From a virus, in IMG/VR virus record IMGVR_UViG_3300029395_000163: a DNA stretch of 64,000 nt. One strand, written 5' to 3'. Each line of letters starts with the position of its first letter. Position 1 is the stretch's first letter. Shown here piece after piece: positions 31,413 to 62,421 of the stretch. Under the pieces are notes generated by a model, which ran no database searches, was not told the origin of the DNA, and saw nothing but the letters and a program-made list of their open reading frames with translations. Position numbers and translations under genes: made by a program.

Positions 31413-31580
31413 TTGTTTGTGGTTTTTCTAATAGGGGTTTTTATTGCCGCCTTTATAGGTCTATTGCTAGTTTATATCGGCAACAAGGTTTTAAATGAGA
31501 TGAAGATGGATGATATGAACTCCGAAATGGAGATGAAAATTAAAAAAGAAATGACGAATTTTAAGGAGAAAAGCGAATGA
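31413..31580 (+). CDS. Small single-TM membrane protein (55 aa), TTG start, translationally coupled to the SPFH gene
   Basis: GAGGAGG RBS. Its stop overlaps the SPFH start (ATGA). Confidence 0.4.
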   Translation: MFVVFLIGVFIAAFIGLLLVYIGNKVLNEMKMDDMNSEMEMKIKKEMTNFKEKSE

Positions 31581-32440
31581 AAAAGATTATTGCACTTGTT
31601 TTAGTAGTAGTGTTTGCGATTTTTGGAGGAATTTTTGCGGTAACACACATAAAAGTTATTGATGCCGGGAAAGTGGGAGTTGTTTATTCTGCAAATGGAG
31701 GCGTTAAAGACGAGCTATATCGTCAGGGATGGCACTTTGTTCCTCCGATGCATAAAGTAAAAGAATTCACTGTTGGAAACGAGCAGTTAGTCCTTTCAAA
31801 AGATAAAAGAGAAGGATCTGAAGGAGATGATTCCTTTAAAGTTGCGACATCCGATGACGCAAGCATCGGATTAAGTTTCCAGATGAGCTATAGATTCATC
31901 GAAGAAAATGTTGCCGATACATATAAGAAATTTAAGGGTATGAGCGGAGAAGACATTGTAAATAATCGAGTAAAAACGGTTATCAAATCAAAAATCTCCG
32001 AAGTTACTACAAATTATAGCATGATGGATATTTATTCCGGAAACAGAAGCGAGATCAACCACAAAATCACAGAATATCTAAATAAAGATTTTAGCAGCAA
32101 GTACGGAATTGAAGTATTGGATGCTTCCATTATTGATGTCCATTTAGATAAAAAGTTAAAACAGGCGGTAGAGAACCGAGTGCAGGCGTTACAGAAAAAA
32201 CAGCAGGCACAGGTTGAACAGGAAACTGTAAAGGTAGAGAATGAAACCAAGTTATTGCAGGCAAAGAATGATGCTGAAATTAAGAAGACAAAAGCTGAAG
32301 CTGAAGCCGCATCTAATCAGACAATCGCAAAGAGTATCACAAAAGAATTAATCGAAATGAAACTAGCGGAAGCGAGACTTGAGCATGGTTGGATTACGAC
32401 TCAGGGAGCTGGAGCTGTGGTAACAAACGGAGGTAATTAA
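31577..32440 (+). CDS. SPFH / band-7 (flotillin/HflKC/prohibitin-like) membrane protein (287 aa)
   Basis: N-terminal TM, then VIDAGKVGVVYSANGGVKDELYRQGWHFVPPMHKVKEFTV..., typical of the SPFH domain, with a C-terminal coiled coil. Confidence 0.7.
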   Translation: MKKIIALVLVVVFAIFGGIFAVTHIKVIDAGKVGVVYSANGGVKDELYRQGWHFVPPMHKVKEFTVGNEQLVLSKDKREGSEGDDSFKVATSDDASIGLSFQMSYRFIEENVADTYKKFKGMSGEDIVNNRVKTVIKSKISEVTTNYSMMDIYSGNRSEINHKITEYLNKDFSSKYGIEVLDASIIDVHLDKKLKQAVENRVQALQKKQQAQVEQETVKVENETKLLQAKNDAEIKKTKAEAEAASNQTIAKSITKELIEMKLAEARLEHGWITTQGAGAVVTNGGN

Positions 32441-42736: not shown

Positions 42737-42757
42737 TTGCAGAAAGGGGATGGTTAT

Positions 42758-43495
42758 ATGTTCATGATAACAGGAGATACTCACGGAGACTGGATAAGAA
42801 GATTAAGGAAGGAATCTTTTCCAGAGCAGAAAGTCATGACTAGAGACGACTATGTGTGTATTGCCGGAGATTTTGGAATCTGGAATAATTCAGCGGAAGA
42901 AAATTATAAGCTAGATTGGCTGGAAGAGCGTAATTTTACGACTTTATTCGTTGAAGGAAATCACAGCAATTATGACATATTAGACAATGTTCCTGTAAAA
43001 ACGTGGAACGGCGGAAAAGTACATTTTATTCGTCCGCATGTGATTCATCTCATGAGAGGACAAGTTTATAACATCGACGGGAAAAAGATATTTACTTTTG
43101 GCGGCGCAAAAAGCCACGACATCCAAGATGGGATTCTTGAGATAGGAGATTCAAGGATTAAAAAGTGGATAGCTGACCCGTACAAGATGTTTCGAGTCAA
43201 TCATTTGAGCTGGTGGAGTCGTGAACTACCAAATGATGCAGAAATGTTAGAAGGAATTCATAATTTGGAGGAAAATGACAATATAGTAGATTATATTATT
43301 ACTCATTGCACATCTACTTCTTTACAGGACAAAATGTCTAATGGATTTTTCAAATCAGATAAGTTAACTGATTATTTCGATAATATAAGGGAAAAGACAG
43401 ATTTTAGTTGCTGGATTTTCGGTCATTACCACGATAATTTGAAGGTAACTGAACGAGATATATGTTTGTACGAACAGATAGTCAGATTATTTTAA
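42758..43495 (+). CDS. Calcineurin-like metallophosphoesterase (245 aa)
   Basis: GDTHGD, GDFG, GNHSNYD and GHYHD motifs. Confidence 0.65.
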   Translation: MFMITGDTHGDWIRRLRKESFPEQKVMTRDDYVCIAGDFGIWNNSAEENYKLDWLEERNFTTLFVEGNHSNYDILDNVPVKTWNGGKVHFIRPHVIHLMRGQVYNIDGKKIFTFGGAKSHDIQDGILEIGDSRIKKWIADPYKMFRVNHLSWWSRELPNDAEMLEGIHNLEENDNIVDYIITHCTSTSLQDKMSNGFFKSDKLTDYFDNIREKTDFSCWIFGHYHDNLKVTERDICLYEQIVRLF

Positions 43496-43505
43496 GGAGA
43501 AATAT

Positions 43506-44000
43506 ATGAAAAGACAAATTAGAAGAAATGTTTTCGAAACCAATTCAAGTTCAATGCATAGCTTATCAATCAAAGGAAGAAAGGGAATAACGGAGTATCT
43601 CCCTGTAGATACGGATAGCAATAAAGTAATTACGAAATTTGGTGAATTTGGGTGGGGATACGAAAGGTACAAGGACCCAGAAACTAAATTATCATATCTT
43701 GCGACGATGCTTATAGAAACGCATCCATTTTGTTTCTCTCTCGAAGAATTGTATGAAACTGAAGATTTCAAGAAAATCAATGACGTTGTTGCTTCAAGAT
43801 GTAAATGTGACGGAATCATAATTAATGAAGAAATAAAAGAGGTTTGCTATGAAGGTATGAGCTGGGCAGACCACGATGGCTATATTGATCATCTATCAGT
43901 AAAAAGAATAGACGATTTGATGAAAGAATATGGCTGCACAATAGAAGAATTTATTTTCGATAAAGGAATTAAGCTGATAATTGATAACGACAATCACTAG
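43506..44000 (+). CDS. Hypothetical protein, paralog A (164 aa), with a conserved N-terminal 25-aa tag
   Basis: MKRQIRRNVFETNSSSMHSLSI... shared with 44010..44420. TAAGGAGAA RBS. Confidence 0.55.
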   Translation: MKRQIRRNVFETNSSSMHSLSIKGRKGITEYLPVDTDSNKVITKFGEFGWGYERYKDPETKLSYLATMLIETHPFCFSLEELYETEDFKKINDVVASRCKCDGIIINEEIKEVCYEGMSWADHDGYIDHLSVKRIDDLMKEYGCTIEEFIFDKGIKLIIDNDNH

Positions 44001-44009
44001 GAGGAATAT

Positions 44010-44420
44010 ATGAAAAGACAGATTAGAAGAGGGACATTTGAAACTAATAGTAGTAGCACCCATAGTTTGTCAATCTGTAGCGAAGAGAAATTCAATCAGT
44101 GGGAAAATGGAAAGCTCGCTTATAGAGAGTATGAAGATGAGTTTGTAAAGATTCCAGATTTATCGCGAGACGAAAAAGAAAGAGCTCGACAAGATTACGA
44201 GGATCACAAAGATGAGTACGCTAAAGACTGGGATGAGTTATCTGAGGATTTAAAAGAAAAATATTATACTAAATATTCAGAAGATATTCATGCTGAGGAT
44301 ATTGATGCAGAGACCTTCAGAGAATGGAGTCATGATTGTTATCTTGAAACGTTTGTAAAACATTATACTACAGAAAGTGGAGATAAAATCGTTGCGTTTG
44401 GAAAGTGGGGATATGAATAA
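44010..44420 (+). CDS. Hypothetical protein, paralog B (136 aa), with the same N-terminal tag and a divergent acidic body
   Basis: MKRQIRRGTFETNSSSTHSLSI...; the nucleotides differ at synonymous sites. Confidence 0.55.
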   Translation: MKRQIRRGTFETNSSSTHSLSICSEEKFNQWENGKLAYREYEDEFVKIPDLSRDEKERARQDYEDHKDEYAKDWDELSEDLKEKYYTKYSEDIHAEDIDAETFREWSHDCYLETFVKHYTTESGDKIVAFGKWGYE

Positions 44421-44467
44421 TAGCAAGATGATTTGAGTTAGTAAGAGTATTTTTGGAGGATATAAGA

Positions 44468-45364
44468 ATGGAACTGTTAGGAAAATATAAAAATGGAAAT
44501 TATACCGTTTCAATTTTTTCGGACGGTACAAAAGTCAGAGAGACAAACGAGGATTGGTTCTGTCCGGAATGGGCTGAAAATATGGATATAAAGATAACGA
44601 ACGAATGTTCTATGAATTGCGCTTTTTGTCACGAAGGAAGCACTCCAGCCGGAAAACACGGAGATATCCTAAATGAAAAATTTGTTGACACGTTGCATCC
44701 ATATCAAGAAGTCGCAATCGGCGGCGGAAACGTATTAGAACATCCAGATTTAATTTTGTTTCTTGAAAAGCTTAGAGATCGAAAAGTGATTGCAAATATT
44801 ACAGTTAACCAAGTTCATTTTGAACAGAATTTTAAACTTATCCAAAAGCTTGTAAGCGAAAAACTGATTTACGGGCTTGGCGTTTCACTGGTAAATCCGA
44901 CAGGAGATTTTATATCAAAAATTTCTACTATACCAAATGCAGTAATTCACGTAATTAACGGAATTTTGAAGCCAGAAGATATTGAAAGCTTAAGAGATAA
45001 AGATTTAAAGATTTTGATTCTTGGATATAAGCAATTAAGAAGAGGATTTGATTATCTTATCGAATCTTATGAAGAAGTAAGAGAAAACCAGAAGTGGCTG
45101 TACGATACTCTTTCGGATATCCTTTCAATGTTTAAAGTCGTGAGTTTTGACAATCTCGCTATTGAGCAGCTCGAAGTAAAAAGACTCGTGAAAGACGACG
45201 AATGGGAAGAATTTTACATGGGAGACGATGGAAATTTTACTTATTATATAGATATGGTTGAAAGAAAATTTGCCCAAAGCTCAACTGCTCCGTTCGATAA
45301 GAGACACGACTTGTTGGATTCAGTGGATGAGATGTTTAAAATAATTGGAGTCACCCATAAATAG
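44468..45364 (+). CDS. Radical SAM enzyme (298 aa)
   Basis: CSMNCAFC (Cx3Cx2C) near residue 50 and GGGN, with GGAGGA 7 nt upstream of the ATG. No SPASM-like extra Cys cluster. Confidence 0.65.
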   Translation: MELLGKYKNGNYTVSIFSDGTKVRETNEDWFCPEWAENMDIKITNECSMNCAFCHEGSTPAGKHGDILNEKFVDTLHPYQEVAIGGGNVLEHPDLILFLEKLRDRKVIANITVNQVHFEQNFKLIQKLVSEKLIYGLGVSLVNPTGDFISKISTIPNAVIHVINGILKPEDIESLRDKDLKILILGYKQLRRGFDYLIESYEEVRENQKWLYDTLSDILSMFKVVSFDNLAIEQLEVKRLVKDDEWEEFYMGDDGNFTYYIDMVERKFAQSSTAPFDKRHDLLDSVDEMFKIIGVTHK

Positions 45365-45372
45365 GAAGAAAT

Positions 45373-45954
45373 ATGAATTACTACATAAGCGATACTCACT
45401 TAGGTCATAAAAATATTATGAAGCTCGATGAACAGGACGGCGGAAGACACTTTGAAAATATTGAAGAACATGACAATTTGATCGTTGAAAACTGGAACAA
45501 AACAGTAACATCAAGCGATAAAGTATATATCCTCGGAGATTTTAGCTGGATGAATGCTCGTGATACGGAAGAGATTCTTCGAAAGCTTAATGGAGTGAAA
45601 TTCCTTATAAAAGGAAATCACGATGGATGGAGTGAAAACAGTAACTGTAGAGGATATTTTCAAGGAATTTATGATTATAAAATGATTAAAGATAATGGTA
45701 GGAAAGTTGTTTTGAGTCATTATCCGATTCTTTTCTATCAGAATCAGCATAAAGGAGCGATTCATTTGTACGGACATGTCCATAACACAAAGGAAGAGGA
45801 ATTGTTCCAAATAGCAATCACAAATGTTTCCTCAGACATAGGTATCCCAGTGAATTCTTATAATGTAGGCTGTATGCTTAAACATATGGATTACACTCCG
45901 AGAACTTTAGATCAAATCCTAAAACAGAAGGAAGATATAATAATTAGAAAATAA
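45373..45954 (+). CDS. Calcineurin-like metallophosphoesterase (193 aa)
   Basis: SDTHLGH, GDF, GNHD and GHVH motifs. Confidence 0.65.
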   Translation: MNYYISDTHLGHKNIMKLDEQDGGRHFENIEEHDNLIVENWNKTVTSSDKVYILGDFSWMNARDTEEILRKLNGVKFLIKGNHDGWSENSNCRGYFQGIYDYKMIKDNGRKVVLSHYPILFYQNQHKGAIHLYGHVHNTKEEELFQIAITNVSSDIGIPVNSYNVGCMLKHMDYTPRTLDQILKQKEDIIIRK

Positions 45955-45988
45955 AGATTACTTGATAGATAGGGAGGTTGTTGCGAAA

Positions 45989-46357
45989 ATGCACGATAAA
46001 ATATTAATATTGGCAGCTATGATTCTGGGACATATTTTAGCTGATTATAACCTACAGGGTTGGCTTGCTTCTGCAAAGCAGAGAAAATACTGGAAAGAAA
46101 ACGCTCCTAAGAAAATGTATCAATACGATTATATCATGGCATTATTTATGCATAGCTTTTGCTGGACATGTTTAATAATGATACCGGTACTGATTAGTGA
46201 GCAGCATATTTATTTTTGGATGTTAGCTTTTCTCAATACCGCAATACATATGTATGTGGATAATGAGAAGGCAAATAAAGAAACGATAAATTTAGTTGAA
46301 GATCAAATTATTCATTTAATTCAAATATTTTTAACTTGGAGCATACTCATATTGTAG
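45989..46357 (+). CDS. Polytopic membrane protein, DUF3307-like (122 aa)
   Basis: HILADYNLQGW motif and four hydrophobic helices. GGGAGG precedes the ATG at 45989. Confidence 0.45.
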   Translation: MHDKILILAAMILGHILADYNLQGWLASAKQRKYWKENAPKKMYQYDYIMALFMHSFCWTCLIMIPVLISEQHIYFWMLAFLNTAIHMYVDNEKANKETINLVEDQIIHLIQIFLTWSILIL

Positions 46358-46607
46358 TAACAGAAACCATTAACGCCAAGTATGGATTAAAGAACAGGTT
46401 TAGTTTTATAGCGATTATGGTAATTATAGTAATCAGCGGTTTATTTGATTTTTCTGGTAAATGGTTAGTGGAATATATCTTTAAATGGAGACATATCAAT
46501 GGTTGAGTTAAATAAGTTATCTACATGTTATAGCAGAGACAAACCACTGCTCGAAGATTTTAATTATAAGTTTAATACGAGAATGTATGAGATATTAGGA
46601 GAAGTAT

Positions 46608-46907
46608 ATGGATAAAGCTGCATTATTTATGGATATGCCGGAAACCTGTGCGGAGTGTATGTTTTCTCGAAAGCTACCAGGAGGGATTACTGCTTGCTGC
46701 GAGATAGAGTCCGAGCCGTTAAATGAACGTCTTTGCAGGGTAATTGATCTAAAAGCCGGATATTTCAAGAAAAGGCAGACATGGTGTCCTCTGAAGAGAT
46801 TCTCAGGCGTAAAATGTGACAAATGTTTCAATATTTTTTTGCACGGGTATCAGTGCGGATGGGATGACTTTAAAAGACAAATGTTAAATGATGAGATGGA
46901 GGAGTAA
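46608..46907 (+). CDS. Cys-rich small protein (99 aa)
   Basis: CAEC, CC, C..C and CDKC motifs. Confidence 0.5.
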   Translation: MDKAALFMDMPETCAECMFSRKLPGGITACCEIESEPLNERLCRVIDLKAGYFKKRQTWCPLKRFSGVKCDKCFNIFLHGYQCGWDDFKRQMLNDEMEE

Positions 46908-46911
46908 GCGC

Positions 46912-47616
46912 TTGAGAAAGAAGAAGGAAACAATCGAAGTTCTAGAACAAGAAGAATTAAGGAATTTTATAAAATTTAGCCCCCAAATAGCCAAATGCAA
47001 CTTATGTAATAATGACCCGCAGATTATAAAAAAGACAGGAGTTGATAAGTACGGGTTTGAAGAAGCGAAATATAAAATATATTGTCCGACTTGCCAAGTA
47101 GGAACAGGATTTTCTTCATTTAATGGTACGGCAATAGATAAATGGAATAAGAAAATGTCTCCCATTAAGTATAAAGATTGTCACATATATGCGTTTACTC
47201 CGTCGGACGAACAATCAGATATTCTAATGGAAGACTATAAGCTTAACTTCTCGTTGCGAGAATATGAGATTGTTCATGGGAAGGGAGGAAGTCACTTTTT
47301 GTACTATATATACGACAAAAAAGAGCGAAAACTGAATCAAGATATTTTTGTCGATGATGTCGCACTATATGGTGCTAATTCGTTTTCCATGTTTATAGAT
47401 GGAATCCCTAAATTTAAAGTTTGCGTTGTTATTGCTAACAATAAAGAAGATGCAGCGAAAATGCTAAATAAAAGATTAGGAGATTTTTTTAAAGAGGGTA
47501 GAAAAACTTTAAATAAAAAGATAGAGAATTATGAGGAACTTTTGCATAATGCAGAACTTAAACTAAAAAAATACAATGACTATATAAACGAAATTTCAAA
47601 AAATAACAGCTTATAA
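46912..47616 (+). CDS. Lar-family-like zinc-ribbon domain (restriction alleviation type) fused to a roughly 150-aa C-terminal domain (234 aa)
   Basis: CNLCNN......YKIYCPTCQVGTGFSSFNGTAIDKWNKK resembles the Lar signature (C..C ... C..C ... A...WN). TTG start with GGAGGA at 8-nt spacing. Confidence 0.45.
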   Translation: MRKKKETIEVLEQEELRNFIKFSPQIAKCNLCNNDPQIIKKTGVDKYGFEEAKYKIYCPTCQVGTGFSSFNGTAIDKWNKKMSPIKYKDCHIYAFTPSDEQSDILMEDYKLNFSLREYEIVHGKGGSHFLYYIYDKKERKLNQDIFVDDVALYGANSFSMFIDGIPKFKVCVVIANNKEDAAKMLNKRLGDFFKEGRKTLNKKIENYEELLHNAELKLKKYNDYINEISKNNSL

Positions 47617-47631
47617 TATATGGGAGCGGAT

Positions 47632-48462
47632 ATGCAGAATATAAAAGATTATTGGACAGGCAAAGAAAAAAGAGCGGAAATTGCGAAAGTTCATACGAAA
47701 GAGATGGAAGAAAAATACTCGAAAGAAATAAAGTATTCCATTAAAAATACAGAAATCTGCAATTCTATAGATATCTTAAAAACAGAAAAAGAAGAGACAG
47801 AGAACACTACGGTAGAGGCTCAAATTTATGTCTGCGATATAGATACAGTTGGAGCAATTTTAGAGTTCGCTTCAAAAGATAAAAGAATTGCGGCTTTAAA
47901 TTTTGCTTCATACAAAAATGCCGGCGGAATGTTTATTAAAGGAAGTAGAGCGCAGGAAGAATGTCTCTGTCACGAGTCATTTTTATATAATGTGCTAAAA
48001 GAAGCGGAGCCATATTATGAATTAAACAGAAAAAGTAAAAATCATGCATTATATCATAACAGAGCCCTTTATTCTCCAGATATTATTTTTGAAAGAGAAG
48101 GCAAAATATGTTATTGCGACGTAATTACTTGTGCCGCTCCTAACAAGAGAGCAGCTCAAAAATATTGTAACGTCTCTGATGAAGAAAATTCGAGGGTTTT
48201 AGAATCGAGAATTGATTTTGTCTTAGACATAGCAAAAGGGCATAAAATAGATATTCTGATCCTTGGCGCTTTCGGATGCGGAGTTTTCGGACAAAGCGGA
48301 GAGGAAGTTGCAAAAATATTTCATAAGCTGTTATTGCGAGAAGAATATGGTTGTTTTGAGAGTGTCGTATTTGCTGTTCCTGCAAGTAAAAACGGGAATT
48401 TTCAGAGCTTTTACGATTGCTTTAGCGGTGAAATTTTAGAAGTGAAACATAATAGTCGATAA
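47632..48462 (+). CDS. Macrodomain protein of the bacterial-type poly(ADP-ribose) glycohydrolase family (DUF2263/TIGR02452-like), 276 aa
   Basis: LNFASYKNAGGMFIKGSRAQEECLCHESFLY matches the PARG signature GGG-x6-8-QEE. Confidence 0.6.
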   Translation: MQNIKDYWTGKEKRAEIAKVHTKEMEEKYSKEIKYSIKNTEICNSIDILKTEKEETENTTVEAQIYVCDIDTVGAILEFASKDKRIAALNFASYKNAGGMFIKGSRAQEECLCHESFLYNVLKEAEPYYELNRKSKNHALYHNRALYSPDIIFEREGKICYCDVITCAAPNKRAAQKYCNVSDEENSRVLESRIDFVLDIAKGHKIDILILGAFGCGVFGQSGEEVAKIFHKLLLREEYGCFESVVFAVPASKNGNFQSFYDCFSGEILEVKHNSR

Positions 48463-48488
48463 TCAAATTTTCTATACGGAGGAATTTT

Positions 48489-49814
48489 ATGTACTGTGCT
48501 TATATTACTACTATCAGAAAAATTAGAAAACATAGCAACGCAGACAGATTACAGTGCGTTGAGGTATTTGGACAGAATGTAATTGTCGATTTGAGTTACA
48601 AAGAAGGACAGAGGGTAGTATTTTTCCCGACAGACGGGCAGTTATCCGCTGAATATGCGGAAGAAAATAACCTTGTAAGAATTAAAGACGAAAATGGAAA
48701 TAATGTTGGCGGATACATGGACGAAAACAAAAGAAATGTTACTGCAATCAAATTAAGGGGAGAGAAGTCAGAAGGTCTTGTTCTTCCAATCGAAACGCTG
48801 GCTAAATATACAGATATCGAGAAATTAAAGGATGGAGACCAGATTACCGTTTTAGGCGGTCATGAAATTTGTCGTAAATATATTCCTAGAAAAAATGAGA
48901 GAAGTAGTTCTAACTATTCAGGAAGCAAAAATAGTAAAAGAAAGAATAAGAAGAAATTAGCTGTAGTTTATCCGTTCTTTAAGGAGCATAAAGATACCGC
49001 CCAGTTAGCTTACAATATGAATGCTTTTAAGCCGGGCGACACGATTTACATCACTCGTAAAATGCATGGGACTTCCGCTCGAACAGCTAAGACCGTAAAA
49101 GTTGAAGATAAGAATAGTTTTGTTAGAACATTGCTCCGAATGAAACCTAAGAAAGAGAAAAATATTGCGATTGTATCTGGAAGCAGGAGAGTGATTTTAG
49201 AAGACGTAACCAGAAATGATGGATATTACTCCGATAACTCATTTAGAAGAAAATATCATGAGCTGCTTAAAAATCGAATCCCAGAAGGAATGGAAATCTT
49301 TTATGAGATTGTTGGATGGGTAAACGAATCAACTCCAATTATGCCATCTGTTTCAAACAAGAAAGTCAAAGATAAAGAGTTTTCAAGAAAATTTGGCGAT
49401 TCAACCGTTTTTGCTTACGGATGCGAGCCGGGAGAATCAGAAATGTATGTTTATAGAATGACGATGACTTCACCAGATGGAACAGTAATTGAACTTCCGT
49501 GGGAAACAGTTAAGATTTGGTGCGAGAAACTCGGAGTCAATCATGTTCCAGAACTTGAGAAGTTTATGTTCACAACGCAGGAAGACTTAAAAGAAAGAGT
49601 AGATAAATACATTACTGGAATGCCAGCGGATGAAATTGGTAAGACCCATATTGCAGAGGGCGTAGTTGTCAGAATTGACAATAGAGAAAGCTTTACAGCC
49701 TTTAAAGATAAGTGCTTTGAATTTAAGGTTTGCGAAGGAATCATCAAAGATACATCCGACGTTCCAGATATGGAAGAAGCTGAAGAAGTTATGGAGGAAA
49801 ATATAAGTGCATAA
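48489..49814 (+). CDS. ATP-dependent RNA ligase (Rnl5/DraRnl-like; N-terminal OB-like domain plus nucleotidyltransferase), 441 aa
   Basis: Motif I KMHGTS (cf. T4 Rnl2 KIHGTN). Domain order resembles DRB0094-type ligases. Confidence 0.6.
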   Translation: MYCAYITTIRKIRKHSNADRLQCVEVFGQNVIVDLSYKEGQRVVFFPTDGQLSAEYAEENNLVRIKDENGNNVGGYMDENKRNVTAIKLRGEKSEGLVLPIETLAKYTDIEKLKDGDQITVLGGHEICRKYIPRKNERSSSNYSGSKNSKRKNKKKLAVVYPFFKEHKDTAQLAYNMNAFKPGDTIYITRKMHGTSARTAKTVKVEDKNSFVRTLLRMKPKKEKNIAIVSGSRRVILEDVTRNDGYYSDNSFRRKYHELLKNRIPEGMEIFYEIVGWVNESTPIMPSVSNKKVKDKEFSRKFGDSTVFAYGCEPGESEMYVYRMTMTSPDGTVIELPWETVKIWCEKLGVNHVPELEKFMFTTQEDLKERVDKYITGMPADEIGKTHIAEGVVVRIDNRESFTAFKDKCFEFKVCEGIIKDTSDVPDMEEAEEVMEENISA

Positions 49815-50802
49815 AAGAATACCTCGTTTAATTGTGATGGTTGGGCTTTCTGCGAGCGGGAAGTCTAGCTACGCAAAAGAACTTGAAAAGGAAAATCCGA
49901 CAAACACGATCGTAATTTCATCTGACGCAATAAGAGAAGAGATATGCGGAAGAGTGGAAGATCAATCTAAAAACGGAGAAGTATTTAGAATTTTCCACGA
50001 AAGAATTCGAAGAAATCTTGAAAAGAAAAAAGATGTTATTGCAGATGCAACAAATATTACGATGAAATCTCGCCGAGCAATTCTAAATCGTGTAAATGGC
50101 TTAGACGTACATAAAGAATGTTATATCATGTCAAAACCATTTAGTTATTGCGTGGAAGATAATAAAGATAGAGAGCATCCGGTTCCAGAAAGTGTTCTGT
50201 ATAAACAATTATTCAAATTCCAGATTCCATTCTATGAAGAAGGATGGGATTATGTTTCTATAGTGGCACGTCATGACTTCGACGACCTTTATAGAGCCTT
50301 TTCCGTTTCAGATTTGTTTAGTCGTATGTATCAGTTCGATCAAAAAAATCCACATCACAATAGAACACTGGACGAACATTGCTCAGAAGCATACGAATGT
50401 TTTTGCAAAATGAGAGGATATAATGCTCACTTCTTAAGATTAGCCAGTCATTTTGCCGTAGGAGCGTTCCTTCACGATATCGGAAAAGTGTTTACTCAAA
50501 AAATTGACGAAGATGGAATCGCCCATTATTACGGACATGCGGAAGTTGGAAGTTATATGGTTCTCACTGAATTGCAAAGACCAGATGATTTAAGAGGAAG
50601 TATGCCCCTTCTTGATTGTTGCTTTTTGATAAATTATCATATGTTGCCGTTTGGCTGGAATAGCGAAAAATCTATACGCAAATGGAGAAGTAGATTTGGA
50701 GACAAGAAATTTGAAGTTTTGCGAGATTTCCACCAGTGCGATATCGCAAGAGACAAAGCAAAAGAAATGGAGAAATCTATTGAGAGATGTAAGCAGGATT
50801 AA
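49807..50802 (+). CDS. Polynucleotide kinase (P-loop) fused to an HD-domain phosphohydrolase (331 aa); RNA end-healing enzyme
   Basis: Walker A GLSASGKSS at the N-terminus. C-terminal HHNRTLDEH...FLHDIGK...HYYGHAEVGS is an HD domain. GTG start with GGAGGA. Confidence 0.65.
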   Translation: MHKRIPRLIVMVGLSASGKSSYAKELEKENPTNTIVISSDAIREEICGRVEDQSKNGEVFRIFHERIRRNLEKKKDVIADATNITMKSRRAILNRVNGLDVHKECYIMSKPFSYCVEDNKDREHPVPESVLYKQLFKFQIPFYEEGWDYVSIVARHDFDDLYRAFSVSDLFSRMYQFDQKNPHHNRTLDEHCSEAYECFCKMRGYNAHFLRLASHFAVGAFLHDIGKVFTQKIDEDGIAHYYGHAEVGSYMVLTELQRPDDLRGSMPLLDCCFLINYHMLPFGWNSEKSIRKWRSRFGDKKFEVLRDFHQCDIARDKAKEMEKSIERCKQD

Positions 50803-50995
50803 AGAGTTTACGGATGAACTCGCAGAGATTTGGGCAGATGAATTTCCGGATTGGAGATTTGGGCAGTTAATGAATAATTTTTTAGCATGGCTGTCTTCAT
50901 ACAAGAAAACAGATTGCTTCTTTCCAGAAGAAAAAGAAATGATGGAATTGTTTAAAGAGTACGCAGGTAGAAAAACAGATATCACAAAGGAGTAG
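50773..50995 (+). CDS. Possible small protein (about 74 aa) overlapping the end of the kinase gene
   Basis: ORF-track ORF 50651..50995 lies in another frame. A plausible TTG start follows GGAG. Confidence 0.25.
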
Positions 50996-50998
50996 TAT

Positions 50999-52975
50999 TT
51001 GGAAAGTTACAGAAAAATCGAAAAAATTAAAGCTTTAATAAAAACTCTTAATGAAGCTTCTGAAGCATATTACAACTATGGGAACTCGGTTATGAGCGAT
51101 GCAGAATTCGACAAAAAAATAGGCGAGCTGAAGAAGTTAGAGTCAGAAACAAAATTTTATTCATCTAATAGCCCTACTCAAAATGTAGGAGCTACAATTC
51201 TAAAAAATATCCCAGAAGTAAAACATGATATTCCAATGCTTTCGCTTGATAAGTGTCATTCGATAGAGGAAGTAGTTGAATTTTCTAAAGGAAAAAATTC
51301 TGTTGCCTCTATCAAGCTTGATGGAATGAGTGTCCGACTAATTTACAAAAATGGCGATCTTCTTAAAGCAGTTTCAAGAGGAAATGGAATCGTCGGAAAT
51401 GATATTACGGAAGCTGCCAAACAGTTTATGAATGTGCCGCTACATATAAACAAAGAAGGCATCTATAAAATAAATGGTGAAGCGCTTATTAAGCTAGATG
51501 ACTTTAAAGAAGTAAATAAAAACGGAGAATATAAAAATAGTCGCAATTTAACTGCAGGAACATTATCTACGTTAGATACAAGCGTGGTAAAAAACAGAAA
51601 AATTAGCTGGTATGCATGGGAAGTAGTCGAAGGAGCTAAAGATTCTTTGTTTTCTTTGCAACTATCTGAAGCAGAATCTCTTGGCTTTGATGTTGTTCCG
51701 TTTAGTGGTGTTGTTTATGGAATGACAAAAATCGATGAAGTAATAGAGTTTTTTATCAAGAAAGCGGATGAAATGAATCTGCCGCAGGACGGAGTTGTCT
51801 TCAAATTTCAAGACGTAGACTACGGAAAATCTCTTGGATACACGAGTCACCATTTTAGAAACGGAATTGCATGGAAAGCAAAGAACGATGATATGGAGAC
51901 AAAGTTAAAGAGAATCGAATGGACAATGGGAAAGACAGGAAGTCTCTGTCCGACAGCTATTTTTGAGCCGGTAGGACTAGAAGGTACTACGGTAGAAAGA
52001 GCGTCTCTTCATAATATTTCCGTCATGAGAGAAACACTTCATCAACCATTCGAAGGACAGGTTATTGCAGTATATAAAAGCAATTTGATCATTCCTCAGA
52101 TAAGATGGGGCGAATATCTATCAGCGGAAGAATTAAAAAATAAAATGCTTATTAATCCTCCAGATAAGTGCCCATTATGCGGCGGCGAGACAGGGATTGT
52201 AAAGGAAAATAACAGCGAAGTTCTTATTTGCAAAAACCCTGATTGTCAGGGAAAACTGCTTGGCAAACTTTCTCATGCAGTGAGTAAAAATGCGCTAGAT
52301 ATAGACGGATTATCAGATGCTACATTACAGAGATTTATTAATAAGGGCTGGATTTGTTGTATTAAAGATATTTACCATCTCAACAAATATAAGAATAGTA
52401 TTCTCAGAATGGATGGATTTGGAAAAAAATCAGTTGAAAACTTGTTGGGCAGTATAGGGAGATCAAGAATTATTTCATTTGATAGATTTCTTGCCGCATT
52501 ATCAATCCCTTTGATTGGAACATCTGCAAGCAAAGACATGGCTAAAATGTGCAATTACGATATCGAAAAATTCAAGCAAATCATGGGAGAAAGTCCGTAT
52601 AAATTTACTGCAATAGATGGGTTCGGAGATAAAATGGCTCATTCGCTATTTGTGTGGTGGAGTAATAATTGCGACAAATTCCTTGAGTTGGAGAAAGAAT
52701 TCTTTTTTGAAAAAGTAGAGGAAAATCCGGCAGAAAATAAATTAGAAGGGAAGAATTTTGTGATTACCGGAAAGCTACATCAGTTTGCAAATAGAAGTAA
52801 GCTAAAAGAAAAAATTGAACAACTTGGCGGTAAGGTTGTCGGTTCTATTTCATCTAAAACAGATTATTTAATTAATAACGATAAAAATTCTACAAGCAGT
52901 AAAAACATCAAAGCAAAACAGTTGAATATACCGATTATTTCGGAAGAAGATTTTTTAGAAATTATAGAGGAATAA
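50999..52975 (+). CDS. ligA: NAD-dependent DNA ligase
   Basis: Domain Ia (YYNYGNSVMSDAEFDKKIGELKKLE), PMLSLDK, the adenylation motif KLDG, a Zn finger CPLCGG...C, and a C-terminal BRCT. Confidence 0.8.
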   Translation: MESYRKIEKIKALIKTLNEASEAYYNYGNSVMSDAEFDKKIGELKKLESETKFYSSNSPTQNVGATILKNIPEVKHDIPMLSLDKCHSIEEVVEFSKGKNSVASIKLDGMSVRLIYKNGDLLKAVSRGNGIVGNDITEAAKQFMNVPLHINKEGIYKINGEALIKLDDFKEVNKNGEYKNSRNLTAGTLSTLDTSVVKNRKISWYAWEVVEGAKDSLFSLQLSEAESLGFDVVPFSGVVYGMTKIDEVIEFFIKKADEMNLPQDGVVFKFQDVDYGKSLGYTSHHFRNGIAWKAKNDDMETKLKRIEWTMGKTGSLCPTAIFEPVGLEGTTVERASLHNISVMRETLHQPFEGQVIAVYKSNLIIPQIRWGEYLSAEELKNKMLINPPDKCPLCGGETGIVKENNSEVLICKNPDCQGKLLGKLSHAVSKNALDIDGLSDATLQRFINKGWICCIKDIYHLNKYKNSILRMDGFGKKSVENLLGSIGRSRIISFDRFLAALSIPLIGTSASKDMAKMCNYDIEKFKQIMGESPYKFTAIDGFGDKMAHSLFVWWSNNCDKFLELEKEFFFEKVEENPAENKLEGKNFVITGKLHQFANRSKLKEKIEQLGGKVVGSISSKTDYLINNDKNSTSSKNIKAKQLNIPIISEEDFLEIIEE

Positions 52976-52977
52976 AT

Positions 52978-53199
52978 ATGAAAATTTCAATGAGAACGAG
53001 AGAGGTAGTAGAGGTAGATGCATTTACCATTCTTTCAAATATAAGACATCGTTTGGGATTAGCTGGCTATTTTATGGAAGACAATAAAGTCTACGAATTT
53101 CTTGATGGGCAAGAGATAGAGGCACCCGACTATATCCAAGAAAAGAAAGAAGTTATTAATGCATTTGAAATACTAGAAGAAGAACTGAGAGACAAATAG
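52978..53199 (+). CDS. Hypothetical protein (73 aa)
   Basis: ORF. Confidence 0.45.
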   Translation: MKISMRTREVVEVDAFTILSNIRHRLGLAGYFMEDNKVYEFLDGQEIEAPDYIQEKKEVINAFEILEEELRDK

Positions 53200-53208
53200 G
53201 AGAGCTTT

Positions 53209-53889
53209 ATGAACAAAATAACGAAATTATTACTTGCGGGAGCTTTTTCTTCTGCGCTAAGTGTCGTCCCTGTTTCGGCGGGGACAGTAAATTTTCAGAC
53301 ATACTTTAAGCCGGACAAGGTAATTGTACAGAATGAGCATAATGGGTATTTAAATGTTTATAACGAAGAAAACGGAGAAAAACTGTATTCAGCAAAAAGA
53401 GACGTTAAATACCTATATTCTACAGCATCTTTAAATATAAGAAAAACTCCTTCTATTAATGGGGAAATACTTCAAACGGTTAGAATCGGAACAAAACTAA
53501 AAAGGATAGGAGATGCTTCTTGCGGCTGGGATATAGTAAAGCTTGCAGATGGAACAAAAGGGTTTGTGTGGAACGAATACTTAAGCGAGCAAAATCCGGT
53601 GATTCCTATGGGGAGATTTAAAATTACTTATTATTGCAACTGCGATAGCTGTAGCGAAGGATATGGAAGACTTACCAGCACGGGGCACACTTGCAAGAGC
53701 GATTATACTATAGCGGTTGATCCGTCCGTTATTCCTTATGGGACGACAGTTTATATAAACGGGGGAGAGTACCTTGCGGATGATTGTGGTGGAGCAATTA
53801 AAGGGAACATTATAGATGTCTACGTGGACCATCATGAGCTAACGGAAAAGAATGGCGTTGACTATTACGATGTTTACATAAAAAGATAG
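53209..53889 (+). CDS. Secreted SH3b plus 3D-domain protein (YuiC / MltA-like cell-wall binding or lytic), 226 aa
   Basis: Signal peptide, SH3b-like segment, then YYCNCDSC...IAVDPSVIPYGTTVYINGGEYLADDCGGAIKGNIIDVY (3D domain). Confidence 0.55.
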   Translation: MNKITKLLLAGAFSSALSVVPVSAGTVNFQTYFKPDKVIVQNEHNGYLNVYNEENGEKLYSAKRDVKYLYSTASLNIRKTPSINGEILQTVRIGTKLKRIGDASCGWDIVKLADGTKGFVWNEYLSEQNPVIPMGRFKITYYCNCDSCSEGYGRLTSTGHTCKSDYTIAVDPSVIPYGTTVYINGGEYLADDCGGAIKGNIIDVYVDHHELTEKNGVDYYDVYIKR

Positions 53890-53898
53890 GAGAACAAT

Positions 53899-54147
53899 TT
53901 GATTAAGAAAACGTTTTTATTGGATTTATCTAATATTTGTGATTTACAGAATTTCGTTAACGATTTGAATACGTATGTAATTGCCGATGTAGATGCAATA
54001 GTTGGAAGATATGTCGTGGACGCTAAATCGGTTCTTGGGATGATGTCAATATGCAACAGAAATATTAGAGTTGGGATACATAGTTGTTCGCAGAGAGGTC
54101 TTGAGACATTCGAAGGTATCTGCAAGAAATACGAGGTATCTGAATGA
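53899..54147 (+). CDS. HPr-fold protein of the Crh type (lacks His15, keeps Ser46), 82 aa
   Basis: Aligns to HPr: KTF..., ADVDAIVGRYVVDAKSVLGMMSI matches ..NLKSIMGVMSLG. The GIHARPA segment is replaced by NICDLQN. TTG start with an AGGAGAA RBS. Confidence 0.45.
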   Translation: MIKKTFLLDLSNICDLQNFVNDLNTYVIADVDAIVGRYVVDAKSVLGMMSICNRNIRVGIHSCSQRGLETFEGICKKYEVSE

Positions 54148-54317
54148 CGAATAGAGAAAGAATACGAGTTTTAAAAGAAATTAGAGATAGATACTTAATT
54201 CTAGGAGAGAACATGGCAGGTTCAGGACATGAACTCAATCTTTTAAAAAAAGAAATAGAGGCTCTGAATTGGGTGATTAAAGCCTGTGACAAATATGAAA
54301 AGCAAACGAGAAGTTGA
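54144..54317 (+). CDS. Small hypothetical protein (57 aa)
   Basis: ATG overlaps the upstream stop (ATGA); under the ORF-track cutoff. Confidence 0.3.
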   Translation: MTNRERIRVLKEIRDRYLILGENMAGSGHELNLLKKEIEALNWVIKACDKYEKQTRS

Positions 54318-54331
54318 GAGGTGGAAGCTTT

Positions 54332-54505
54332 ATGGCTATTAAAATTATTCAACACGGAAGATTAAGGAAGTGTGCTTGCTTTAATTGTGGATGCATTTTT
54401 TCGTTTGAAAGAGAAGATACGAAAGAAGAATTAGTAGGTATTTCAGAATATGCAACATGCGTAGAATGTCCAGAGTGCGAAGAAAGGAATATTATAAGTC
54501 TATGA
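54332..54505 (+). CDS. Small zinc-ribbon protein (57 aa)
   Basis: CACFNCGC....CVECPEC; GAGGTGG RBS. Confidence 0.45.
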   Translation: MAIKIIQHGRLRKCACFNCGCIFSFEREDTKEELVGISEYATCVECPECEERNIISL

Positions 54506-55239
54506 TTAAATTAGAAAATGTAGTTTTAGCGAATCCAGGGCAAATGGAGTTTATTATTGAAGGCATGAGGAATCCTATGAACTCATGGGAGAAGAGTGAT
54601 AGTGGCGTTTGTTTAAAAAGTTTACCATGTCACAGTTGTCATGAAAATAGAAATGACTGCAAGAAAAATATCGATTCTGGTTATGTTCTCGGAGAAAACG
54701 ACCACTCGCTCATGCAGCGCTTAGCTAAGGCTGGCACCGACCATAGAAAATTTATGAGAATGATGCCGGTGTATGTGAGAATTACGGCTCCTTTGTATTG
54801 GTGGAAAGAGTTTGATACTTATAAAGTGGCGACCGTTTCCAATAGTTGTTCGACAATGCACAAGATAGATGCAAAAAAATTTGTATTAGATGATTTTTCC
54901 TATGAACATCTGATAAATAATGAAGAAATTACATATCCAAACTCAGACGGTGGAGATGATGAATGGGGTTCTTTGGATATTTTAGATTTGACTATGGATG
55001 CCCTTAACCACTATAGGGATTTATACTTGAAAACAAAAAACAAGAAATATTGGTGGCAGATGATTCAACTATTGCCATCTTCATATAATCAGACTCGTAA
55101 TGTTTTTTTGAATTATGAGGTTCTGGCAAATATCTATAAATCTCGCAAAAATCATAAACTAGATGAATGGAGAGAATTCTGCAAATGGATTGAGAGTCTG
55201 CCATACAGAGAATTAATTACAGGGAAAAATGATGACTAA
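54502..55239 (+). CDS. Hypothetical protein (245 aa) with a weak ThyX-fold-like pattern but no RHR..S..SxRY motif
   Basis: DHRKFMRMMPVYVRITAPLYWWKEFDTYK loosely resembles FEH..FHVKAPIFVARQWFRHR of ThyX. Confidence 0.4.
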   Translation: MIKLENVVLANPGQMEFIIEGMRNPMNSWEKSDSGVCLKSLPCHSCHENRNDCKKNIDSGYVLGENDHSLMQRLAKAGTDHRKFMRMMPVYVRITAPLYWWKEFDTYKVATVSNSCSTMHKIDAKKFVLDDFSYEHLINNEEITYPNSDGGDDEWGSLDILDLTMDALNHYRDLYLKTKNKKYWWQMIQLLPSSYNQTRNVFLNYEVLANIYKSRKNHKLDEWREFCKWIESLPYRELITGKNDD

Positions 55240-55391
55240 TATTTTGGCATCAGTGCGGATAACGTGTCAGTCATATCTTTTCTTTAAATTTTTTCAAAGA
55301 CTTGCAAGCGGAGATTACGATATAGCCGCTTTTGCAGGCTTTTCTTTTATTCTATTAACAATCGTAATGTTTTCATAAGAAAAGGAGATAT

Positions 55392-55955
55392 ATGTTAATA
55401 ATCTTAGGTAAAACAGCAAGTGGGAAAAACACAATAGTAAACGAACTTGTTAAGAATTATGGGTTTAAGCAATTAGTTACTTATACTACTCGCCCCAAGA
55501 GGAAAGGTGAAATTGAAGGAATTACATATCATTACATTTCGTTAGAAGAATTTAAAAAGAAAGACAGAGAAGGTTTTTTTGCTGAATCAAGTTATTTCTG
55601 TCCGGCATCCGGCGGAGAATGGGCTTATGGAACAAGCTTAGAGGATTTTAAAAAAGCTGATGATAAAACAGTTTTAATTACTAATCCAAGAGGATACGAT
55701 TCTCTTTTAAGTAATATTGGGCTTGGTCATGCCTGCTCAATATATATTATAGCAAAGGAAGATATTCTTCTTGATAGATTAGAGGAGCGAGGAGATTCCT
55801 TTTTAGAAGCACAACGTAGAATTGTCGCAGATAGAGAGGATTTTGAAGATGTAGGGAACTATGTGGATTTTTGGATTGCAAATGACGGAATGCTTTCTAT
55901 AGAGGAGATTGCAGCCGCAATAAATCGACGAATTGAAAACAAAGAATGCAAATAA
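55392..55955 (+). CDS. Guanylate-kinase-like (d)NMP kinase (187 aa)
   Basis: P-loop GKTASGKNT and YTTRPKRKGEIEGITYHYISLEEF. Confidence 0.65.
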   Translation: MLIILGKTASGKNTIVNELVKNYGFKQLVTYTTRPKRKGEIEGITYHYISLEEFKKKDREGFFAESSYFCPASGGEWAYGTSLEDFKKADDKTVLITNPRGYDSLLSNIGLGHACSIYIIAKEDILLDRLEERGDSFLEAQRRIVADREDFEDVGNYVDFWIANDGMLSIEEIAAAINRRIENKECK

Positions 55956-60967: not shown

Positions 60968-61444
60968 ATGGTAGGAATAGGATTTCTTACATTTGTTATT
61001 GTACTTATGGCTGTTGTGTTTATGGATGATATTCCAAATTCCATAAAGAAACAACTATACATTAAAAAACATCCAGAGATTAAGATATTTTTGAACACAT
61101 ATAAACAGCTAAATGAGCGAAGAAAATCGGATTGTGAAGCAATGAGAAGACTGCGTAGCGCAATGGAATGTGTTCCGGAAGAAGAAAGACAGAGCTTAAA
61201 TGATGTCCATTTCAATTTTTTAAAAGACTCTAAGAAAATGGAACGCTGTATGGAAAGTTTTTGCGAAACAAATAAAAACGTGATTCGAGACGCACAAAAG
61301 ATTTTTCTCGATGAATTTGATTGTCGAGCAATGCGATGGGCTGAAAGGGCGCGAGTACAGCAAAAAATCGAAGTTAAAAAACAGAAGAGTATAGCGCAGG
61401 CTGAAAGGAGGAGCTTATGGAAATCAAAGAAATTAGAGAAATAA
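60968..61444 (+). CDS. N-terminally membrane-anchored protein (158 aa)
   Basis: TAGGAGGG RBS; TM helix followed by a charged coiled coil. Confidence 0.5.
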   Translation: MVGIGFLTFVIVLMAVVFMDDIPNSIKKQLYIKKHPEIKIFLNTYKQLNERRKSDCEAMRRLRSAMECVPEEERQSLNDVHFNFLKDSKKMERCMESFCETNKNVIRDAQKIFLDEFDCRAMRWAERARVQQKIEVKKQKSIAQAERRSLWKSKKLEK

Positions 61445-62421
61445 TTAAGGGTAGTGAATATAATTTTCTCCGCAATAACGAGCATTTGTGGAAGAACGTG
61501 ATATTGCTTGGATTAGGAGGGAGTCATGCGTATGGATTAAATACGCCAGAATCAGATATAGACATTAGAGGATGCGCTTTGAATTCCAAAAGAGAGATCC
61601 TATTAGGAAAAGGTTTCGAACAGGTAGAAAATAAAGAAACAGATACCGTAATATATTCGTTCAATAAAATGATTTCTCTATTGTGTAATTGCAATCCTAA
61701 TGTCTTGGAAATTTTTGGTTTGAAACCAGAACACTACTTGTACATATCTCCATTCGGACAAGAATTATTAGATAATAAAGACTTATTTCTTTCTAAGAGA
61801 GCGATAAAGTCATTTGGCGGTTACGCTGTGAGTCAACTATATAGGCTCCAGCAAAAAACTCTATGCGCGTTATCAGAAGAAGAATACAACGAACATATTT
61901 GTAAAGTTATCAATCAAATGATATTTAAACTAGAAAGTAGATACGGTTTAAAAAATGTTAAAGTGTTTGTGGAAAACGGCGAACTGAAGATAACGACCTC
62001 TATAGAGGATTTTCCTCTTGAAGATTTGGCGGGATTATTAAGTGAAATCAACAATACTTCAAGAGATTATAAGAAAAAATCGAAACGCAATGAATACGCA
62101 ATAAATCACAAAAAAGCTGCAAAACATAGCGTTAATCTAATTCGCCTCCAGATGATGGCGATCGATCTCCTAGAGAATAAAGAGATTATCACATATAGAG
62201 AAAAAGAGCATGATTTACTAATGGATATCAGACTCGGAAAATATTTAGACTCAGATGACAAGCCGAATTCTGCATTCTTTGATATCGTGCATGAATATGA
62301 GAAAAAATTTGATTACGCAAAAAATAATACTGAGCTTCCAGAAGAACCAGATATGGACAAGATTAATGACTTTGTTATGTCTGTAAATGAAAGGATTGTA
62401 AGAGGAAGCACATTTGATTGA
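61417..62421 (+). CDS. Pol-beta-superfamily nucleotidyltransferase, RlaP-like (RNA-ligase-associated), 334 aa
   Basis: LLGLGGSHAYGLNTPESDIDIRGC is the GS...D.D nucleotidyltransferase motif. Confidence 0.55.
   Translation: MEIKEIREIIKGSEYNFLRNNEHLWKNVILLGLGGSHAYGLNTPESDIDIRGCALNSKREILLGKGFEQVENKETDTVIYSFNKMISLLCNCNPNVLEIFGLKPEHYLYISPFGQELLDNKDLFLSKRAIKSFGGYAVSQLYRLQQKTLCALSEEEYNEHICKVINQMIFKLESRYGLKNVKVFVENGELKITTSIEDFPLEDLAGLLSEINNTSRDYKKKSKRNEYAINHKKAAKHSVNLIRLQMMAIDLLENKEIITYREKEHDLLMDIRLGKYLDSDDKPNSAFFDIVHEYEKKFDYAKNNTELPEEPDMDKINDFVMSVNERIVRGSTFD

Follow-up and report, generated by a model that had tools for sequence, protein, structure and literature searches.

What does the enzyme poly(ADP-ribose) glycohydrolase (PARG) do in a phage genome? 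The physiological role of the bacterial-type members of this family has been unclear since the first structure was solved in 2011, as most of the bacteria that carry them have no poly(ADP-ribose) polymerase (PARP). The question is raised here by a gene at 47632..48462 (+) of a 64-kb stretch of DNA from the virus record IMGVR_UViG_3300029395_000163. The genome to which this stretch, hereafter the window, belongs is only partly covered by it and probably measures 110-170 kb. A first-pass annotation of the gene had proposed a PARG-like macrodomain (DUF2263), encoded in a phage early region and directed against ADP-ribosylation-based defence, i.e., against DarTG-like modification of DNA or against other ADP-ribosyltransferase (ART) toxins. 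On balance, we lean towards a reading in which this gut phage uses its PARG as the de-blocking enzyme of an RNA-repair cassette, where it would strip ADP-ribose (ADPr) off damaged RNA before the RNA is repaired.

The family assignment is confirmed by both profiles that describe bacterial-type PARGs. The protein matches PF10021 (PARG_cat_microb, formerly DUF2263) with an E-value of 2.3e-28 and 99.9 bits against a gathering cutoff of 23.5, and the NCBIfam profile TIGR02452 with an E-value of 3.8e-58 and 197.1 bits against a cutoff of 50, the latter match extending over positions 24-263 of the 266 in the profile. PF01661, the generic Macro profile, reaches 15.3 bits and stays under its cutoff of 22, and a comparison with PHROGs assigned no functional family. 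Among the solved structures, sequence search finds the PARGs of Deinococcus radiodurans (DrPARG; 5zdf, E 1.6e-27) and Thermomonospora curvata (TcPARG; 3sig, E 1.9e-22), with QEE aligned on QEE. An AlphaFold2 model of the protein (pLDDT 83.9, pTM 0.85) is in agreement with the family assignment. Its best Foldseek match in the PDB is T. curvata PARG 3sih, with template-modelling (TM) scores of 0.80/0.81, a root-mean-square deviation of 2.5 A, 277 aligned columns and 30% identity. All top 13 PDB matches are TcPARG or DrPARG (twelve of them DrPARG entries) at TM 0.70-0.84, and generic macrodomains follow at about 0.4. As modelled, the protein has a macrodomain fold that carries a helical extension at its N-terminus and can be superposed on the solved bacterial PARGs.

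The open reading frame (ORF) extends over 47620..48462 (+) and 280 aa, and residue numbers given here refer to this frame. The start at 47632 used by the first-pass annotation corresponds to Met5. Since a Shine-Dalgarno-like GGGAG lies 5 nt 5' of 47632, and since the closest homologues are 276-aa proteins that begin, with the N-terminus MQ.IKDYW, at the equivalent Met, 47632 is probably the true start, giving a protein of 276 aa; the ATG at 47620 is an upstream alternative.

The catalytic-loop segment LNFASYKNAGGMFIKGSRAQEECLCHES (47896..47979, +) aligns to NFASAKNPGGGFLGGAQAQEEDLC of DrPARG. It contains Q112-E113-E114 (codons 47953..47961, +), whose Glu-Glu pair is the predicted catalytic one. 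This triplet is invariant in both of our alignments (A1 and A2) and falls on the QEE of the DrPARG active site, as had to be expected if the first-pass annotation was right. Among the 14 diverse sequences aligned, which come from phages and bacteria and include DrPARG, the residues N94, F95, S97, G102, G103, Q112, E113 and E114 are invariant. The glycine-rich loop preceding QEE, also named by the first-pass annotation, is present in a modified form: it reads GGM-X7-QEE against the canonical GGG-X6-8-QEE, the third Gly being replaced by Met104 (47929-47931). In the phage/Bacillota clade the residue at this position may be M, K, R or G, whereas both preceding Gly are invariant, so the third Gly of the PARG signature appears dispensable. 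A second Gly-rich loop, GAFGCGVFG (48265..48291, +), aligns with GAWGCGVF of DrPARG and contains six further residues that are invariant in the same 14 sequences (G216, A217, G219, C220, G221, and F223); this is presumably the loop with which the macrodomain binds the diphosphate. By sequence and fold the protein is a bacterial-type PARG, with the third glycine of the signature as the deviating feature. It is predicted to be a catalytically intact enzyme, i.e., a macrodomain O-glycohydrolase acting at C1'' of ADP-ribose. In the homologues SCO0909 and DRB0099, the latter being the D. radiodurans PARG, mutation of the main catalytic Glu abolished activity (PMC11833690).

For comparison, we used a viral set of 77 IMG/VR loci and a bacterial set of the 80 best loci; single loci are cited by handles such as L001. 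IMG/VR contains five syntenic relatives of the window (L001-L004 and L052), whose contigs measure 87-129 kb; about 70 further viral contigs that carry a PARG are more distant and mostly 100-195 kb in length. Against the five close relatives, to which it is about 90% identical, the PARG gene shows a dN/dS of 0.12-0.15 and is thus under purifying selection. Protein identity to L001 is about 92% for PARG and 98-99% for its neighbours, a difference for which we considered diversifying selection; the low dN/dS rejects it, as the extra divergence is synonymous. Synonymous divergence (dS) against L001 is 0.30 for PARG and 0.04 for neighbours such as the DNA ligase gene ligA, which points to a recombination mosaic. 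Along this line, neighbouring genes of the same genome pair differ in dS up to about 50-fold when 42737-55952 of the window is compared with L001-L004 and L052, a metallophosphoesterase reaching a dS of about 2 against L002. This unevenness indicates frequent recombination between related phages.

Downstream of PARG, two genes for RNA repair follow on the same strand. The PARG stop codon (48462) is separated by 26 nt from the start of a 441-aa ATP-dependent RNA ligase (48489..49814, +), and the next gene, encoding a 331-aa polynucleotide 5'-kinase (PNK) of P-loop type fused to an HD phosphohydrolase (49807..50802, +), starts before the ligase stop codon, with an overlap of 8 nt. The ligase matches PF09414 (E 1.4e-12, 48.5 bits against a cutoff of 27) and has an N-terminal OB domain (PHA02142 OB-fold), which gives a weak match to Naegleria Rnl5 (E 0.01). 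BLASTP aligns it with the D. radiodurans RNA ligase DraRnl (DRB0094) at E 4e-10 over the OB domain and motif I, TRKMHGT in the window and TEKLHGT in DraRnl. Because of this architecture, the weak Rnl5 match and the DraRnl alignment, we assign the protein to the nick-sealing Rnl5 family. The kinase domain of its neighbour matches AAA_33 (E 2.8e-22, 80 bits) and the kinase of C. thermocellum Pnkp (4gp6, E 1.9e-12), while the match of the HD domain is marginal (23.9 bits against a cutoff of 22). A single weak terminator-like match was found in the PARG-ligase-kinase stretch; it lies inside the kinase-HD ORF, and the count of the scan is within the range of shuffled sequence. Promoter-like sites are fewer than in shuffled sequence. 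The order PARG, RNA ligase, PNK/HD, LigA is kept in all five close relatives.

A similar arrangement is known from D. radiodurans. There, a radiation-induced operon has DRB0099 flanked by the ligase DRB0100 on one side and by DRB0098, an HD-phosphatase/polynucleotide kinase, on the other (PMC11833690), and a role in RNA/DNA repair has been proposed for this operon. In the MP1 megaplasmid sequence, these three genes are adjacent and DraRnl follows 3.3 kb further on, such that PARG, DRB0098 and DRB0094 all lie within 6 kb. The window PARG is 40.7% identical to DRB0099 over 66% of the query (tblastn), with TM scores of 0.76-0.84. The window kinase is 29% identical to the DRB0098 kinase domain (E 2e-16), and both proteins contain the motif HDIGK, although their domain order is swapped. 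DRB0100, a LigB-type ligase, was rejected as a counterpart of the window ligase (best E 0.019), which is homologous to DRB0094 instead. The two clusters also differ in gene order (ligase-PARG-HD/kinase in Deinococcus, PARG-ligase-kinase/HD in the window), in replicon (a bacterial megaplasmid and a phage-like genome) and in the catalytic loop (GGG and GGM). As the place of the LigB-type enzyme is taken by a DRB0094-like Rnl5 ligase, the phage cluster is, judged by its sequences, a compact and functionally parallel version of the Deinococcus PARG/end-healing/ligase cluster and not an orthologous copy.

We read the three phage genes as a deblock-heal-seal cassette because bacterial PARGs have been reported to remove 2'-O- and 5'-phosphate-linked ADP-ribose from RNA. 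In a 2025 study in Nucleic Acids Research (PMC11833690), SCO0909, DRB0099 and human PARG were the only tested hydrolases to remove the 2'-O-ADPr made by RhsP2 from double-stranded RNA. SCO0909 and DRB0099 also take ADPr off 5'-phosphate ends of RNA or DNA, and they rescue E. coli from RhsP2, an ART toxin acting on RNA (PMC11833690). As far as can be told from sequence, the window protein should work like these two enzymes; it is not a DarG-type macrodomain.

Under the deblock-heal-seal reading, abortive-infection RNases would nick host RNA that is needed for translation during infection. The RNA might be ADP-ribosylated as well, either on the ribose 2'-OH by ART toxins or on 5'- or 2'-phosphate ends by enzymes of the KptA/Tpt1 type. 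PARG would then hydrolyse the C1''-O bond and leave a clean 2'-OH or phosphate end, the kinase-HD protein would phosphorylate 5'-OH ends and remove 2',3'-phosphates, and the Rnl5-type ligase would seal the nick in duplex RNA. As a result, tRNA and rRNA could stay usable despite abortive-infection nucleases of the host or RNA-directed ARTs. The proposal builds on the family, catalytic residues, fold and purifying selection of the PARG, on its tight co-directional linkage to the ligase and kinase-HD genes, on the homology of these two to genes found around the PARG of D. radiodurans, and on a recurrent linkage of PARG to KptA that is described in the following paragraph. The substrate chemistry is taken over from the characterised homologues; which substrate is used in this phage, in which order the steps proceed and that they serve counter-defence, we infer.

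In bacteria, a gene for KptA/Tpt1, an RNA 2'-phosphotransferase, lies within 6 kb of the PARG homologue in 13 of the 80 loci, always on the same strand. These loci span Bacillota, Bacteroidota, Verrucomicrobiota, and Myxococcota, and in five of them (L083, L098, L115, L116, and L129) the two genes directly adjoin. By our own estimate, made with no computed control, a gene assumed to be single-copy would fall into a random 12-kb neighbourhood of a few-Mb genome in well under 1% of cases. The PARG homologues in these contexts are 32-54% identical to the window protein, and genes for RtcB, Thg1, cREC, ARH and NADAR are encountered there as well. A gut Bacillota chromosome (L162) has RtcB and, further on, the run AAA_33 kinase-Thg1-PARG-KptA; a Dysgonomonas locus (L123) combines KptA, a LigB-like ligase and HD/PNK with a PARG at some distance. 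A verrucomicrobial locus (L114) contains Band_7 two genes upstream of PARG, as well as cREC+ARH and KptA, and in a Lachnospiraceae locus (L089) PARG and KptA are accompanied by PHP, RlaP, an R2K ATP-grasp protein and a metallophosphoesterase. In Flavobacterium reichenbachii (L098, 1685-12518), an 11-kb co-directional run of genes leads from a Prs-like pyrophosphokinase over Nuc_deoxyri_tr2, NADAR and a Macro+ARH fusion to PARG and KptA, and on to ARH, an adenylosuccinate-synthetase-like protein and NAMPT. By its predicted products, this run is a dense cluster for ADP-ribose processing and NAD+ recycling. According to reviews, KptA accompanies Thg1 in operons for RNA repair, whereas in NAD+/ADPr operons its companions are macrodomains, ARHs and NADARs; this PARG type clearly takes part in such operons. 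In Anabaena, deletion of trcR, which encodes a repressor controlling translation-related genes, de-represses a TIGR02452 gene together with RtcB and a slipin. In phages, at least one of Rnl5, PNK, RlaP, Thg1, KptA and Band_7 is found within 8 kb of PARG in 25 of the 77 viral loci, and a 206-kb phage contig (L175) encodes RlaP and a CCA-adding enzyme upstream of its PARG.

Several observations weigh against a dedicated repair cassette. PARG is tightly linked to ligase and kinase-HD in the window's own lineage of six genomes only; in phage relatives with about 53% identity, a distance of 6-8 kb separates PARG from ligase and kinase, or these two are out of reach. Because the tight adjacency is limited in this way, part of the linkage may reflect nothing but a shared placement in the accessory-gene region of related phages. 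No immediate neighbour is universal across the 77 viral loci, the commonest being small unknown ORFs and DNA methyltransferases. In the relatives with about 53% identity (L013, L016, L020, and L040), PARG is flanked by small unknown ORFs and by orphan methyltransferases of the N6_N4_Mtase, C5 DNA_methylase and D12 (Dam-type) families. Such orphan DNA methyltransferases are typical anti-restriction genes, and this neighbourhood resembles an anti-restriction island. Among the bacterial loci, a PNK/HD-like neighbour occurs in only 3 of 80, and some contexts have no relation to RNA repair, e.g., MoxR-PARG-PP2C-PASTA kinase. Several contexts also hold genes for NAD+ salvage and for the processing of soluble ADPr, with which a small-molecule substrate fits equally well. 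The window shares a good part of the repertoire of the KptA operons, i.e., Rnl, PNK/HD, RlaP, Band_7, and metallophosphoesterases, but KptA itself was not detected in its 64 kb (phmmer on ORFs of at least 70 aa, and Pfam scans), nor were 2H, cREC, ARH or NADAR genes, a tRNA gene or a recognisable ART.

The best surviving rival, which we regard as unlikely, starts from these NAD+-related contexts. In this case, the phage PARG would process small molecules, namely the 2'cADPR/3'cADPR signals of Thoeris or by-products of KptA such as ADPr-1''-phosphate, and would thereby silence immune signals and recycle ADP-ribose to NAD+. The O-glycosidic bond between the riboses of 2'cADPR/3'cADPR is of the type that PARG cleaves in poly(ADP-ribose) (PAR), where, as in the RhsP2 product, the 2'-OH is bound to C1'' (PMC11833690). 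A phage glycosidase of different fold, RyDEP, cuts this bond in both isomers, evades Thoeris and feeds the NARP1 pathway, and from comparative genomics it has been predicted that the targets of phage Macro domains are mostly soluble derivatives of ADPr. Besides the Flavobacterium cluster with its Prs-like, NADAR, Macro+ARH and NAMPT genes, phage loci L175 and L176 (6001-12000) have PARG followed by a nicotinamidase-like isochorismatase, an NAPRTase, an NMNAT-like CTP_transf protein and an NAD synthase. From their families, these four genes are a Preiss-Handler-type NAD+ salvage set, which differs from the NARP1, NARP2, and NARP3 pathways as described in PMC13464706. However, the window PARG is not located beside an NAD+ salvage or NARP gene, its neighbours being RNA ligase and kinase-HD. 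We found no report of a PARG-type enzyme that cleaves cADPR isomers, and as the PARG pocket is built for a terminal ADP-ribose, the fit of a cyclic ligand is in question.

Less likely still is de-ADP-ribosylation of proteins, by which the enzyme would trim the poly- or mono-ADPr that a PARP-like enzyme of the host or an ART toxin has attached to proteins, or would tune an ART of the phage itself. PAR hydrolysis was the first activity shown for DUF2263 proteins, namely those of T. curvata, H. aurantiacus, C. difficile (CD160) and D. radiodurans, and modification of host proteins by phage ARTs is known. T. curvata PARG (3sig/3sih), the founding bacterial-type structure, shares the macrodomain core, the N-terminal helical extension and QEE with the window protein; it has been characterised as an exo-acting PAR hydrolase with a C-terminal ribose cap, and its genomic context differs. 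Against protein substrates speaks the scarcity of PARPs. In 2018, 28 bacterial PARP homologues were known from 27 species, in comparison to 6,758 protein clusters of the PARG family (E <= 0.001) and at least 591 confirmed places in a collection with one genome per species; most bacterial PARGs hence have no PARP partner. Neither a PARP nor an ART was detected among the scanned window ORFs, and the recurrent partners of PARG are RNA-repair and KptA genes.

DarTG-type modification of DNA, the target that the first-pass annotation had put first, is very improbable: an orphan DarG-like antidote would remove DarT-made ADP-ribose from the bases of phage DNA and permit replication on DarTG hosts, whereas the O-linkages of the PARG-type enzymes are of another kind. 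In DarT adducts, ADP-ribose is N-linked to thymidine or guanosine, and the enzymes that take it off are DarG macrodomains/TARG1 or NADARs, each of them base-specific. Guanosine-linked ADPr on RNA is not reversed by macrodomain and ARH hydrolases, and PARG-type enzymes act on 2'-O-ribose and 5'-phosphate linkages (PMC11833690). For the thymidine-ADPr assay, the accessible part of the source lists fly Parg in the hydrolase set and ends at the words 'only Targ1'; in those portions of the literature that were available to us, no PARG-type enzyme is described as active on DarT adducts. The window protein matches no PADLOC model at E <= 0.01, is a single domain that lacks a DarT-binding extension, and has no DarT-like gene nearby. 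In favour of a DNA target, the gene has genes for DNA replication and ligase around it and, in related phages, the orphan methyltransferases mentioned above, and two phage counters to DarTG have been proven, namely the NADAR protein AdfN against DarTG1 and a DarG2-like macrodomain of chimalliviruses. Both are stand-alone phage erasers of ADP-ribose on nucleic acid of probably bacterial origin, in which they resemble the window protein. They differ from it in belonging to the NADAR or the DarG/TARG1-like clade and in acting on the N-glycosidic bond to the base, whereas the PARG-like window protein presumably cleaves an O-linkage to ribose or phosphate at C1''; moreover, they are experimentally proven, while the window protein is known from sequence and model. 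The alternative offered by the first-pass annotation, other ART toxins, survives, most plausibly as ARTs that target RNA, since the genomic evidence points to RNA repair and KptA-linked ADPr processing. A role in counter-defence in the broad sense is plausible.

For the deblock-heal-seal reading, a farther-reaching version can be formulated, which we put forward tentatively and consider rather doubtful. The cassette might be the first phage-encoded three-step pathway of this kind and its PARG the first viral eraser of RNA ADP-ribosylation, answering a still undiscovered defence of Lachnospiraceae-type hosts in which an RhsP2-like or KptA-like ART would modify tRNA or rRNA at the 2'-OH or at terminal phosphates. 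If so, most orphan bacterial PARGs might, by extension, be enzymes of nucleic-acid repair or immunity rather than of PAR metabolism.

A role of bacterial PARGs in repair or immunity was proposed in 2025 from a single Deinococcus operon (PMC11833690). Two independent lines of genomic support are added here, the tight PARG-Rnl5-kinase-HD cassette of the phage and the linkage of PARG to KptA/Tpt1 in four bacterial phyla. Together they outline a concrete, testable pathway with few proteins to reconstitute, and turn the open question of bacterial PARG function into a concrete three-protein experiment. If the pathway exists, phage counter-defence by erasure of ADP-ribose would extend from DNA, where NADAR and DarG-like proteins act, to RNA, and host defences that ADP-ribosylate RNA would be predicted in gut Bacillota. 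We found no published description of a phage-encoded PARG-type enzyme, and none that singles out the PARG-KptA linkage, the reviews treating the linkage of KptA and macrodomains in general terms. Both the cassette and the linkage are extensions of known themes and will not surprise the specialist.

Downstream of the cassette, the NAD+-dependent DNA ligase LigA (50999..52975, +; DNA_ligase_aden E 6e-43, with OB, HhH, and BRCT domains) follows the kinase-HD gene after a gap of 196 nt, and its membership in the cassette is uncertain. Most of this gap is taken up by a 114-aa ORF (50651-50995), which overlaps the 3' end of the kinase-HD gene in another frame. At a distance of 13 kb downstream of PARG, RlaP, an RNA-ligase-associated nucleotidyltransferase of the Pol-beta type, is encoded at 61417..62421 (+; PF10127, E 1.7e-15). 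Its homologues are located directly 5' of PARG in L089 and within 8 kb of PARG in at least nine viral loci.

Upstream of PARG, an ORF with a zinc-ribbon-like N-terminus (46888..47616, +; weak match to Lar_restr_allev, 20.3 bits, under the cutoff of 28.6) ends with its stop codon 4 nt before the ATG at 47620. No homologue of this ORF was found in the 77 viral loci. It is preceded by a small Cys-rich ORF of 99 aa (46608..46907, +), which has no Pfam match and was traced to 11 related viral loci by tblastn. In these (L009, L010, L014-L018, L029, L031, L043, and L051), its homologue is located directly 5' of PARG, with 5-25 nt or about 500 nt left between the end of the match and the start of PARG. 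The Cys-rich ORF may be a conserved partner or regulator of PARG. In the window, the zinc-ribbon ORF sits between the two, while the relatives lack it.

The window as a whole has 35% G+C, a strong positive GC skew and nearly all genes on the + strand. Among its products are a Sak annealing protein, a PD-(D/E)XK nuclease, DnaB, DnaG, and a PolIII-alpha-type polymerase, and further two metallophosphoesterases, a radical-SAM protein, DUF3307, the NAD+-dependent DNA ligase, Gmk, NrdD/NrdG, dUTPase and RlaP. The location in a phage early region, as given by the first-pass annotation, is upheld insofar as this is a phage-like part of a genome devoted to replication and nucleotide metabolism, whereas 'early' is an inference. 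Megablast of 44000-53000 against 50,697 GenBank phage records returned zero matches, so no annotated close relative exists among these records. At the protein level, matches came only from Lak megaphages, from Bacillus phage G (gp114) and from some uncultured phages, with hardly any annotation of use.

Three further observations concern more remote parts of the window. Firstly, the radical-SAM protein (44453-45364) has homologues with 50-52% identity (E about 1e-100) in the Prevotella megaphages Lak-B6 and Lak-A1, where they are located 5-7 kb from the PARG homologue (L169, 10.8-15.4 kb; L170, 10.8-14.2 kb). PDB sequence searches with this protein and with the window ORFs 43506-44000 and 44010-44420, which carry the N-terminal motif MKRQIRR..FETNSSS.HSLS, gave nothing usable. 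Several paralogues of these two ORFs lie beside the Lak radical-SAM genes, and on this sequence evidence the block 43506-45364 is common to very distant phage lineages. Secondly, a Band_7/SPFH protein is encoded at 31577-32440 (E 2.6e-29). Thirdly, a 752-aa protein (28944-31202) has weak matches to sigma-70 region 2/ECF and a match to GmrSD_N (DUF262-like), and a tyrosine recombinase (26610-27623) is encoded just upstream of it; the two give a hint of a lifestyle that is temperate or plasmid-like, or else of a nuclease carried by the phage.

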